Positions 47 to 59,188 of a DNA stretch of 64,000 bases are shown here, in pieces (position 1 is the first letter of the stretch; each line of letters starts with the position of its first letter). The notes below the pieces were generated by a model that did not search any database, was not told the origin of the DNA, and saw nothing but the letters and a program-made list of their open reading frames with translations. Source of the DNA: Candidatus Levyibacteriota bacterium (GTDB taxonomy: Bacteria > Patescibacteriota > Microgenomatia > Levybacterales > UBA12049). Location: assembly GCA_041906785.1 (NCBI GenBank), contig JAYRIM010000028.1, positions 204,383 through 268,382 on the forward strand, in the 5' to 3' direction. Made by a program: the position numbers and the translations under genes.

Positions 47-1153
47 TTATTTCTTCACTTTTTCCCAGGGAAATTCGGTGCGGCCGAAGTGGCCATAAGC
101 AGCAGTAGGTAAATAAATCGGTTGTCGTAATTGTAATGTTTCAAGGATTCCTTCTACTGAAGTATCTAGTAATGAAGACATGAAGTCCTTCAGTGCTTTT
201 TTACTCACTTTTTCAGTCCCAAATGTTTCAATTTCTTGCATTATTGGTTTCTTCGCACCTATGTAATAAGCTAAATATACTTCTGCTTTATCAGCTAATC
301 CTTGAGCGACAATATTCTTCGCTAAAAATCGTGCGGCATAGGCTCCTGACCTGTCAACTTTCGTTGGATCTTTTCCGCTAAATGCTCCTCCACCTACTCT
401 TGCATATCCACCATATGTATCTACTACGATTTTTCTTCCTGTAAGACCAGAATCTGATGCAGGTCCACCGTTATGCCAAACTCCTGTACCATTTACAATA
501 AGATCTTTCTTGGGATAGGAAAATCCAAACTTTTTCAGCACAGGATCGACAACTTGTTTGTATACATCTTCTTTTACCTGGTCAAGTGTTACTGATGCTT
601 GATGGGGGACAGCAATGACCACATATTTAACTTCTACAGGTTTTCCGTCTCTATATTCTATTGTAACTTGTGTTTTTCCGTCCGGCTTTAAATAAGAAAG
701 AACTTTTTTTTCTCTGACCTCGTCTATCCTTTTTGCCAATGCATGGGCTATTGTTATAGGTAGGGGCATAAAAGAAGAGGATTCATTTGTGGCAAATCCG
801 AACATCATGCCTTGATCCCCAGCGCCTTTTTTCTTTACTCCCACTGCTATTTCAGGTGACTGCGCATGGATTTTAATGTCTATAGGTGACGTATCAGAGA
901 ATCCATATTCTTCATGGATGTATCCTAACCTTTTTATTTGTTTACGTGCTATTTTTTCAAAATCGATTTCTGCTTTCGTATGTATTTCTCCTACAAGGAA
1001 AAGACTATTTGCTGCAGCCATTGTTTCGATTGCTGCTCTTCCATACGGATCTTGACGAAGAACTTCATCTACGATTGCGTCACTTATTTGATCACAGATT
1101 TTATCTGGATGACCAGCGCAAACAGATTCAGAAGTAAATAATGATATTTTCAT
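47..1153 (-). CDS. metK: S-adenosylmethionine synthetase (methionine adenosyltransferase)
   Basis: Full-length MetK-like translation (MKISLFTSESVCAGHPDKICDQISD...; C-terminal GGGAFSGKDPTKVDRSGAYAAR signature). The track ORF runs to 1177 via TTG, but the MetK-like N-terminus begins at the ATG at 1151-1153. The extension would read through the leader hairpin. Confidence 0.93.
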   Translation of the reverse strand: MKISLFTSESVCAGHPDKICDQISDAIVDEVLRQDPYGRAAIETMAAANSLFLVGEIHTKAEIDFEKIARKQIKRLGYIHEEYGFSDTSPIDIKIHAQSPEIAVGVKKKGAGDQGMMFGFATNESSSFMPLPITIAHALAKRIDEVREKKVLSYLKPDGKTQVTIEYRDGKPVEVKYVVIAVPHQASVTLDQVKEDVYKQVVDPVLKKFGFSYPKKDLIVNGTGVWHNGGPASDSGLTGRKIVVDTYGGYARVGGGAFSGKDPTKVDRSGAYAARFLAKNIVAQGLADKAEVYLAYYIGAKKPIMQEIETFGTEKVSKKALKDFMSSLLDTSVEGILETLQLRQPIYLPTAAYGHFGRTEFPWEKVKK

Positions 1154-1271
1154 AAAAAAAGCCTCAAAAAGAGGCAATAATTACTTGCCTTTATTGGCCG
1201 CATTTTCTTTCGAAAAAGCACCGTGGTAATTCGGTTGCTGTATAGTCAAATGGACTATAACTCTTAATGCG
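1154..1271 (-). promoter_or_regulatory. SAM-riboswitch-like leader of metK (reduced SAM-I-like core plus SD-sequestering hairpin/terminator)
   Basis: Minus-strand leader reads CGCAUU-AAGAG-[UAUAGUC..GACUAUA hairpin]-CAGCAACC-...-GGUGCUUUUUC-GAAAG-AAAAUGCG. It has a P1 pairing (CGCAUU/AAUGCG), the AAGAG junction, GCAACC and GGUGC motifs as in SAM-I. It ends in hairpin GCCUC-UUUUU-GAGGC + U7 that abuts the ATG, with GAGG (SD) forming the 3-prime arm. The canonical P2 k-turn (GGAGGGA) is absent. Confidence 0.45.
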
Positions 1272-1324
1272 TATTATTATTGAAGCATAAAAAATAAACT
1301 CATGCAAGTGGTATTTCTCTATAT

Positions 1325-35871: not shown

Positions 35872-35946
35872 TGGAGCCGATGGTGAGATTTGAACTCACG
35901 ACTTGCTCTTTACGAAAGAGCTACTCTACCACTGAGTTACATCGGC
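35872..35946 (-). tRNA. tRNA-Thr (anticodon CGT)
   Basis: Reverse complement GCCGATG-TA-ACTC-AGTGGTA-GAGT-A-GCTCT-TTCGTAA-AGAGC-AAGTC-GTGAG-TTCAAAT-CTCAC-CATCGGC-T-CCA. Full cloverleaf, G53-C61, CCA encoded. Confidence 0.88.
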
Positions 35947-54987: not shown

Positions 54988-55539
54988 CTAGAAAGAAACC
55001 TTCACGTTCTTTCGTTCTTCCTCATTTGCTTCGAAGAACTCTGCTGGTTTAAAACCAAACATATTAGCCACAATTACATTTGGAAAAACACCAATCTTTG
55101 TATTATATTCCAGTACATTGCTGTTATAGAATTGCCTTGAATATGCTATCTTATTTTCAGTGTCAGATAACTCCTCTTGTAATTTAGCGAAATTCTCATT
55201 TGCTTTAAGGTCAGGATAACTTTCCGCCACAGCAAATAATGATTTTAAGGTTTGGCTTAACATATTATTCGCTTCGGCCTTTTCACGTGTCCCTTGTGCT
55301 GACATTAAACTTGCCCGAGCTTTCGTAACATTCTCCAGAAGTTCTTTTTCATGTTTTGCGTAACCCTTTACTGTTTCGACAAGATTAGGAATAAGGTCTG
55401 TTCTTCTTTTTAGTTGAACATCGATGTGAGAAAGAGCCTCCTGAATTCGTAATTTAGCAGCAATAAGACTGTTATATACCAGCCATAAGTAGACGAGAAG
55501 CAAACCGAATAAGCCTAAAACGATAAATAATGCGTTCAT
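54988..55539 (-). CDS. lemA: LemA family protein
   Basis: N-terminal TM then [47 protein letters not shown], classic LemA. Confidence 0.8.
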
Positions 55540-57451: not shown

Positions 57452-57529
57452 GGGGTGGTAGCTCAGTTGGTTTAGAGCGCCTCCCTGTCACGGAGGAGGT
57501 CGCGGGTTCGAGTCCCGTCCATCCCGCCC
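57452..57529 (+). tRNA. tRNA-Asp (anticodon GTC)
   Basis: GGGGTGG-TA-GCTC-AGTTGGTTTA-GAGC-G-CCTCC-CTGTCAC-GGAGG-...-GCGGG-TTCGAGT-CCCGT-CCATCCC-G-CCA. Discriminator G73. Near-identical arms to E. coli tRNA-Asp. CCA encoded. Confidence 0.9.
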
Positions 57530-58850: not shown

Positions 58851-59126
58851 ATGTATTTTACATATGTGCTGAGATGTATTGATAATAAGAGAGGTCGAGT
58901 TGAGTTTTATACTGGCTCAAGTGAAACATTACCAAACCGTATTGAGGATCATAAATCAATGAGAGTAAAAACGACTAAGTCTTTTGATAGTATAGAACTT
59001 GTCTATTACGAAGCTTGTCTGAATAAAACCGATGCTCTTCATAGAGAGAATCAATTAAAAACAGGATTTGGAAGAGGATATATTAAAAGAAGAATTGAGA
59101 ATTATTTAAAAAATTTGCGGGGTTAG
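58818..59126 (+). CDS. GIY-YIG nuclease domain protein (small, about 90-102 aa)
   Basis: YFTYVLRCIDNKRGRVEFYTGSSETLPNRIEDH = GIY-YIG motif. The likely true start is the ATG at 58851 (MYFTYVL...). The last codons overlap the 5-prime end of tRNA-Gly. Confidence 0.75.
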   Translation: MQSFQTARLKNMYFTYVLRCIDNKRGRVEFYTGSSETLPNRIEDHKSMRVKTTKSFDSIELVYYEACLNKTDALHRENQLKTGFGRGYIKRRIENYLKNLRG

Positions 59127-59188
59127 TACACCGGTAGTATGCTACCTTCCCAAGGTAGAGAAGCGAGTTCAATTCTCGTACCCCGCTC
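59117..59188 (+). tRNA. tRNA-Gly (anticodon CCC)
   Basis: GCGGGGT-TA-GTAC-ACCGGTA-GTAT-G-CTACC-TTCCCAA-GGTAG-AGAA-GCGAG-TTCAATT-CTCGT-ACCCCGC-T. Discriminator U73 as expected for Gly. CCA not encoded. Confidence 0.8.

Follow-up and report, generated by a model that had tools for sequence, protein, structure and literature searches.

What controls metK in this member of the Patescibacteria (Microgenomates-like), and does the leader of the gene hold a riboswitch of a known class or something new? The window, by which we mean the whole 64-kb stretch of DNA that was analysed, has metK as its first minus-strand gene:

47-1153, minus strand: metK (S-adenosylmethionine synthetase) coding sequence, with its ATG at 1153-1151 and its stop codon at 49-47.

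The identity of the gene is supported by matches to all three S-AdoMet synthetase Pfam domains (PF00438, PF02772 and PF02773). The TTG at 1177, which was listed as the start by the ORF tool, was rejected as the metK start, MetK homologues aligning from residue 1-5 in the protein comparison. The nearest MetK proteins are all from Patescibacteria, the named ones belonging to Candidatus Daviesbacteria, Roizmanbacteria and Levyibacteriota at 70-72% identity; apart from the window's own protein the top match has 79% identity, and no MetK relative above this value was found in the sequence collections searched. The upstream neighbour, a group-1 glycosyltransferase gene, ends at 1325, leaving a spacer of 171 nt in which the leader element (1154-1271, minus strand) lies directly upstream of metK and on its sense strand.

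A preliminary sequence-only reading of this leader had picked out several SAM-I hallmark strings in the expected order, and each of them is confirmed within 1154-1271 of the minus strand. The covariance model search which that reading proposed (Infernal cmscan, Rfam 15, whole window) returned a single riboswitch match, to the SAM-I/IV model RF01725 at the metK leader (minus strand, 1275-1171), scoring 52.4 bits, where the gathering score is 41.1 bits, and spanning the entire model (positions 1-99 of 99), with E-values of 1e-5 when all 64 kb are searched and 3.9e-8 when the search is local. RF01725 is the top-scoring member of clan CL00012 at this leader, the other SAM-clan models being outcompeted. 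The minimum free energy (MFE) fold of the leader contains P1, P2, P3, P4, P5 and a terminal hairpin, and is more stable than that of shuffled sequences (z = -3.39, equal folding in 0 of 200 shuffles). Judged by model match and predicted fold, the metK leader is a SAM-I clan aptamer of the SAM-I/IV class (RF01725), and so adds a member to an already described class, with a known type of expression platform. Its parts, in the order of the transcript, are as follows:

1179-1271, minus strand: SAM-I/IV aptamer, from P1 to the PK-2 3' strand, as delimited by the RF01725 match.
1266-1270, minus strand: P1 5' strand, GCAUU, placed by covariance model, fold and sequence.
1261-1265, minus strand: J1/2, AAGAG, in agreement with the conserved AAGAG of the model.
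1240-1260, minus strand: P2 hairpin, consisting of bulged U1260, UAUAGUC, loop CAUUU, GACUAUA and C1240, from the fold.
1217-1239, minus strand: P3, AGC-AA-CCG, a loop of AAUUACC plus a conserved A, and CGG-U-GCU, carrying the GCAACC and GGUGC core strings.
1226-1231, minus strand: PK-2 5' strand, AAUUAC, in the P3 loop, complementary to 1184-1179.
1205-1214, minus strand: small P4, UUC-GAAA-GAA, capped by a GNRA loop and situated after P3 and ahead of the P1 3' strand, from the fold.
1200-1204, minus strand: P1 3' strand, AAUGC, followed by the linker G1199.
1187-1198, minus strand: P5 hairpin, GCC-AAUAAA-GGC, 3' of P1, from model and fold.
1179-1184, minus strand: PK-2 3' strand, GUAAUU, the perfect complement of AAUUAC at 1231-1226.

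The binding core is made up of AAGAG at 1265-1261, GCAACC at 1238-1233, GGUGC at 1222-1218 and the A-U/U-A step of P1 at 1268-1267. The hairpin that was said to precede GCAACC is readily recognized as UAUAGUC-CAUUU-GACUAUA at 1259-1241; P2 is thus an uninterrupted 7-bp stem with one bulged U and a closing G-C pair, the latter formed between the final G of J1/2 and C1240 and conserved as G-C in all eight sequences having both letters. The strings CGCAUU/AAUGCG that had been proposed for P1 exist (1271-1266 and 1204-1199), but not as a helix of six pairs, P1 in the family being 5 bp (GCAUU/AAUGC): C1271 could form a sixth pair with G1199, which is the linker G and invariant in 9 of 9 aligned sequences. 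The GAAAG reported earlier as a separate string belongs to the P4 loop region, within 1214-1205. As to a PK-1 pseudoknot between the P2 loop and the junction 3' of P3, which SAM-I/IV RNAs lack, the loop sequence CAUUU has possible partners (AAA or AAAUG) in the A-rich J3/1-P1 segment; complementarity of this kind is trivial in AU-rich sequence, and no consistent complement to the P2 loops of relatives (GGCU, UAU, AAUA, CCAAAAA, GGAUU) was seen by eye.

One SAM-I/IV RNA available for comparison is env87, whose crystal structure was reportedly determined by Trausch et al. in 2014 (PDB 4L81); its sequence and description are used here as quoted in passages of PMC5393176 and PMC6890682. All env87 elements were found in the window sequence on mapping (env87 sequence as excerpted in PMC5393176). 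The window shares with the class the P1 A-U/U-A step, AAGAG and the GCAACC...GGUGC core, together with an unsplit P2, a P4 between P3 and P1, a P5 and PK-2, in the same order as in env87, and its P4 occupies the same place as that of env87 (CACCG-GAGA-CGGUG). The passages of Zhang (2019, PMC6890682) on the solved SAM-I/IV structure likewise describe an unsplit P2 (no P2a/P2b), no PK-1 and a P4 helix, and the SAM-I/IV section of RNA-Puzzles round III has P5 stacking on the PK-2 backbone (PMC5393176). Compared with env87, the peripheral helices of the window are very short and AU-rich (P3 of 3+3 bp, P4 of 3 bp, P5 of 3 bp), and the linker from P5 to PK-2 is 2 nt (AA) rather than 6 nt. The window also differs from the RF01725 consensus, which has an SD-like AGGAG right after the aptamer, in that its platform is a terminator-like hairpin, and from the original description of SAM-I/IV, in which marine metagenome sources dominated, in that its host belongs to the Patescibacteria. 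We found nothing specific in the literature on riboswitches natural to the Candidate Phyla Radiation.

SAM-I (S-box, RF00162) is the usual regulator of metK and methionine genes, typically acting through an antiterminator/terminator platform. It has the ligand-binding core and the P1-P4 junction logic in common with the window, but possesses a P2 kink-turn and PK-1 (P2 loop with J3/4) and lacks P5 and PK-2, whereas the window has both of these, no kink-turn and apparently no PK-1. SAM-IV (RF00634) shares the core, a hairpin 3' of P1 and PK-2 with the window; it has a P2 internal loop and PK-1 but no P4, whereas the window has a straight P2 and a small P4 (PMC6890682).

RF01725 is also matched by 14 related metK leaders of Patescibacteria or metagenome origin, 11 of which score at or above the gathering score (L001, L012, L082, L085, L088, L095, L161, L162, L163, L164 and L166), the other three falling below it (L081, 40.0; L165, 39.6; L167, 31.9 bits). 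Three further metK leaders (L003, L004 and L091) carry SAM-I (RF00162) instead, above its gathering score, and in L084 SAM-I is just under threshold (41.4 bits against 44.4). The covariation analysis of related metK leaders that had been suggested for this locus was carried out on nine sequences (the window, seven related RF01725 leaders and env87). When the aptamers were aligned automatically with MAFFT, the 3' half and env87 came out misaligned; a structural alignment segmented by hand (N = gap), which MAFFT returned unchanged, was used instead. Because this alignment is hand-made, its pair counts for P2, P4, P5 and PK-2 lean towards structure; the register of P1 is fixed by the adjoining conserved junctions and was not chosen by hand. 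Across the alignment 94.9% of cells are paired and both sides change in 30 of 40 pairs, none of 500 shuffles reaches any of its pairing measures, and pairing drops to 37-44% when the partners are slid by 1-3 columns. Compensatory changes occur in four of the five P1 pairs, with 100% of cells paired, and in all five pairs of P5; eight of nine P2 pairs covary. P3 has 96.5% of cells paired with invariant core pairs, and the CAACC, GGUGC and U-A columns are invariant as well. P4 is marginal in the nearest relative, L161. Membership of the family and its helices are accordingly borne out by compensatory change among orthologous leaders.

The pseudoknot PK-2 is present in the window as 6 bp, which about 2-3% of shuffled tails equal (p about 0.02-0.03). 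Six of the seven PK-2 columns change on both sides, and the pairing strands are unrelated in sequence from leader to leader: AAUUAC/GUAAUU, UAAAAGUU/AACUUUUA, AAGUAUU/AAUACUU, AAGCUU/AAGCUU, UAGGA/UCCUA and ACGGAC/GUCCGU, with AAAAGUU/AACUUUU listed as a further covarying pair. The strength of PK-2 differs within the group: in the window, L163, L088, L082, L001, L095 and env87 it is equalled by only 0.1-5% of shuffled tails, and it is weak (3-4 bp) in L161, L162, L165, L166, L081 and L012.

Upstream of the aptamer two hexamers are candidates for the promoter of the leader:

1302-1307, minus strand: candidate -35 hexamer, TTGCAT, read from the sequence.
1279-1284, minus strand: candidate -10 hexamer, TTCAAT, chosen by positional conservation in relatives.

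The arrangement TTGCAx-N17-TTyAAT, 6-7 nt before P1, recurs in the window, L001, L081, L161 and L163, and in L088 the first hexamer is TTGAAA. A consensus promoter scan missed the TTGCAT/TTCAAT pair, the -10 of which is without A at position 2, and sigma-70 promoters showed no general enrichment in the window. The transcript probably starts at about 1272, one nucleotide before P1, making the riboswitch the probable 5' end of the mRNA.

Between the aptamer and the start codon lies the presumed expression platform:

1161-1175, minus strand: terminator-like or SD-sequestering hairpin, GCCUC-UUUUU-GAGGC, of 5 pairs, 4 of them G-C.
1154-1160, minus strand: U7 tract, candidate terminator tail and SD-to-AUG spacer, from the sequence and a terminator scan.
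1172-1190, minus strand: candidate antiterminator or anti-sequestor hairpin, AGGCAA:UUGCCU, a 6-bp stem in the terminator scan.

The arms of the terminal hairpin are GCCUC at 1175-1171 and GAGGC at 1165-1161, its energy in the full leader is -8.8 kcal/mol, and GCCUC-U5-GAGGC-U7 matches the intrinsic-terminator pattern in the terminator scan. As first described, the hairpin and its U7 run end at the ATG, and the 3' arm holds the only SD-like sequence within 20 nt of the metK start (GAGG, 1165-1162, 8 nt before the ATG). Thirteen related leaders retain a homologous hairpin, its usual form being CCUCUC...GAGAGG followed by U7; the U run is of seven in most of them and of 4-5 in L081 and L084, and it is kept where the AUG is displaced. 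In the window and eight relatives (L088, L082, L085, L081, L084, L162, L164 and L166) the U run is followed directly by the AUG; in L161, L165 and L086 the AUG is displaced downstream by 11-22 nt, and in L163 and L167 by about 150-170 nt. L001 and L012 have no terminator and carry an SD in the P5 3' arm. Since relatives whose start site is out of its reach keep the U7 hairpin, the conserved function of the hairpin is probably termination, with SD burial an addition. Terminators that include the ribosome binding site in their 3' side have been called "dual expression platforms", which could reduce transcription and, where transcripts read through, prevent their translation as well (Barrick and Breaker 2007, PMC2258182), and the layout of the hairpin in the window shows no essential difference from theirs. 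Control at the translational level as well as by termination, as the sequence-only reading had supposed, is plausible on the same grounds, the last hairpin being terminator-like and carrying the sole SD-like sequence.

In the window the terminator 5' arm has its best upstream partner in AGGCAA at 1190-1185 (RNAduplex, -8.2 kcal/mol), which comprises the P5 3' arm and linker; its complement UUGCCU at 1177-1172 enters the terminator 5' arm, and the PK-2 3' strand falls in the loop of the resulting hairpin. Predicted energies are -7.2 kcal/mol for AGGCAA:UUGCCU, -4.2 for P5, -8.8 for the terminator and -13.0 for P5 plus terminator. With increasing transcript length the MFE structure contains P5 up to 98 nt, AGGCAA:UUGCCU at 100-110 nt and P5 with the terminator from 112 nt, a modelled series that resembles what would be expected of a kinetically controlled OFF switch. 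Taken alone the AGGCAA:UUGCCU pairing is weak and not significant, 71 of 300 shuffles doing as well. An antiterminator formed from the P1 3' strand or from P4, as in SAM-I and in L081, L085 and L088, was also considered for the window and gave only weak AU-rich pairings (GAAAGA:UCUUUU and AAGAG:CUCUU), which were rejected in favour of AGGCAA:UUGCCU.

The partner is not the same in all relatives. AGGCAA:UUGCCU is not conserved in the nearest one, L161, where the terminator partner is ACGAGAG in P2. In L162, L163 and L164 the terminator 5' arm pairs best with the P5 loop and 3' arm (in L163 at -14.1 kcal/mol, 2 of 300 shuffles as good), and in L081, L084, L085, L086, L088 and L165 the partner is on the P4 3' side (...AGAGGA). 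In L082 it is in J1/2-P2 (-16.0 kcal/mol, 3 of 300 shuffles as good), and in L166 the best partner is weak and no better than chance. Most of these leaders are therefore predicted to contain an aptamer-internal competitor for the terminator 5' arm, the location of which is variable.

From these elements we propose that a SAM-I/IV-type riboswitch shuts metK off when SAM is plentiful. Binding of SAM would lock P1, P5 and PK-2, leaving UUGCCUC free, so that GCCUC would pair with GAGGC and the hairpin with its U7 tract would halt RNA polymerase immediately ahead of the AUG; in transcripts that escape, the hairpin would conceal the sole SD-like sequence. Without SAM, AGGCAA would pair with UUGCCU once this had been transcribed and block the terminator, so that metK would be transcribed and its SD left open; the SAM-stabilised P5 and PK-2 would prevent this antiterminator from forming. 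As an account of the metK leader as a whole, we regard this SAM-I/IV OFF switch as likely. A more specific proposal, which we make only tentatively and consider possible though rather doubtful, is that in this lineage the switching element is the P5/PK-2 3' subdomain rather than P1, with the terminator 5' arm opposed to the P5 3' half. On this proposal the partner would have moved repeatedly (P5, P4, P2/J1-2) around a fixed CCUCUC/GAGAGG-U7 hairpin, which would supply one of few functional SDs.

How the two functions of the hairpin are weighted bears on the alternatives. A switch acting by termination alone, with GAGG kept just to pair with CCUC as a mimic of the antiterminator partner and not as a ribosome-binding site, is unlikely, while having several observations on its side. 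An SD-like 4-mer is found upstream of 6 of the 45 long ORFs in the window, compared with 10% at random positions, and TATAAT precedes the ATG of many long ORFs by a few nucleotides, which suggests leaderless mRNAs. With SD use near background, GAGG may have no role as an SD; this weakens the case for translational control, and the rarity of SD use in this genome likewise makes that part of the proposal less certain here than in the dual platforms of Firmicutes. The terminator is moreover detached from the AUG in 5 of the 13 relatives, and GAGAGG is duplicated in P4, P5 or P2 of relatives as a competing strand. Against this, a few genes of the window do have a strong SD, such as the AAAAGGAGGTGA that precedes the ORF at 54988-55539, indicating that the ribosome can use one, and the GAGG-to-AUG spacing of 7-8 nt is kept in the window and seven relatives. 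Since its leader is long and structured, metK is itself not leaderless, which also counts against termination alone.

The opposite alternative, in which GCCUC/GAGGC would do no more than hide the SD and the U7 tract would be a mere A/U-rich spacer, is improbable. It would account for the constant distance from GAGG to the AUG (8 nt in the window, 7 nt in seven of the relatives whose AUG adjoins the U run and 4 nt in L084), for a 3' arm that retains GAGG instead of covarying freely and for the terminator-free leaders of L001 and L012 with their SD in the P5 3' arm. The stem is of only 5 bp, and nowhere in the window do terminator-like sites exceed their frequency in shuffles, for which reason intrinsic termination as a general practice of this genome is unproven. 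On the other hand, the hairpin and U7 are intact in L161, L165, L086, L163 and L167, with the AUG 11 to about 170 nt downstream, SD-like motifs occur at background frequency in this genome, and a GC-rich stem followed by seven U residues is the canonical signal of an intrinsic terminator.

With the OFF switch by termination and possible SD burial retained as the preferred reading, the class of its aptamer leaves little room for doubt. The sequence-only reading had taken the leader for a reduced or minimal SAM-sensing variant, having correctly observed that a GGAGGGA-type kink-turn sequence is absent from it, and with it any kink-turn or internal loop in P2, and having assumed that SAM-I/IV needs this element. 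The assumption does not hold: in the work that introduced the class, SAM-I/IV variants are defined by a P2 without internal loop and without a pseudoknot at the P2 tip (Weinberg 2010, PMC2864571 and its Additional file 1), as is also apparent from the structural account in PMC6890682. Because the class is defined by a P2 lacking the kink-turn and internal loop, the absent GGAGGGA is a class hallmark and not a reduction. The straight P2 and the short AU-rich P3, P4 and P5 are what could speak for a new class that had lost its kink-turn, a reading we consider very improbable given that the full RF01725 model is matched above threshold and that P4, P5 and PK-2, which had been overlooked, are present. 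That the resemblance is due to chance, the leader being unstructured or of unrelated function, is scarcely credible, for beyond the ease with which short AU helices arise at low G+C nothing suggests it, against a local E-value of 3.9e-8, a fold z of -3.39 and 14 orthologous leaders with compensatory changes.

The finding matters little beyond annotation. As a very short, AU-rich SAM-I/IV RNA with a 2-nt linker between P5 and PK-2, the leader could suit as a minimal construct for biophysics, and it could seed inducible control in Patescibacteria, a group that lacks tools of this kind (PMC11665869). The 15 related leaders, the window included, form a compact natural series in which the platform appears to be rewired around a fixed terminator. 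For Microgenomates-type Patescibacteria it means that metK would be under a standard SAM-I-clan riboswitch, orthologous leaders carrying either SAM-I or SAM-I/IV.

Orthologous metK leaders of Patescibacteria carry either a SAM-I aptamer (RF00162), in which the P2 internal loop is present, or a SAM-I/IV aptamer (RF01725), as illustrated by the set compared here:
L084:1343-1500, with L003, L004, L091 and L142: orthologous metK leaders compared as SAM-I versus SAM-I/IV
The aptamer of L084 is SAM-I-like, scoring slightly below the Rfam gathering score (41.4 versus 44.4 bits), and is followed by the same hairpin as is found behind SAM-I/IV aptamers (CCUCUC...GGGAGG-U4-AUG). This combination of a SAM-I-like aptamer with the hairpin of SAM-I/IV leaders indicates that the aptamer type has changed in metK leaders while the terminator-like platform around it stayed conserved.

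Other relatives:
L001:1960-1986 and L012:1975-2003: terminator-free SAM-I/IV leaders, Shine-Dalgarno (SD) sequence in the P5 3' arm
L163:452-600 and L167:about 230-400: extra sequence between riboswitch terminator and metK start
L002:1900-1985 (DATKGO010000065.1, Patescibacteria MAG; MetK 69% identical): metK leader
In L001 and L012 the SD (AGGA) lies within the 3' arm of P5. The 3' strand of pseudoknot PK-2 (AAGCUU) immediately adjoins the AUG in L001, so that the aptamer itself should block translation initiation there. Two relatives, L163 and L167, have ~150-170 nt added before metK, and in L163 the usual AUG behind the U run starts a 13-codon ORF (MLIFHDIVGIRVA) rather than metK. The leader of L002 does not belong to SAM-I/IV and matched no Rfam family even at a relaxed E cut-off of 10; it forms instead a near-perfect long hairpin (GGAACAAAUUUUUUCCUAGCA...UGCUAGAAAAAAUUUCGUUCC) enclosing a small branched core (MFE -35.8 kcal/mol, z = -4.98). 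This structure may represent another type of regulatory RNA, or else an inverted repeat that was inserted here.

Within the window, a promoter-like sequence lies a few nucleotides upstream of P1, and the only Rfam matches besides the metK riboswitch are three tRNA genes:
1279-1307 (-): promoter-like TTGCAT-N17-TTCAAT
35875-35946 (-): tRNA gene
57452-57526 (+): tRNA gene
59117-59187 (+): tRNA gene
The position of the promoter-like sequence is kept in related leaders; a consensus promoter scan did not pick it up because its -10 element lacks an A at position 2.

Translation starts were surveyed across the long ORFs of the whole window, with example ATGs at:
19258 (+), 21598 (+), 19235 (-), 21511 (-) and 49256 (-)
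SD-like motifs occur upstream of these ORFs at background frequency (6/45 versus 10% at random positions), and many ORFs have a TATAAT box ~7-12 nt upstream of the ATG. This spacing suggests that leaderless or very short-leader mRNAs are widespread in this genome of 33.6% G+C.
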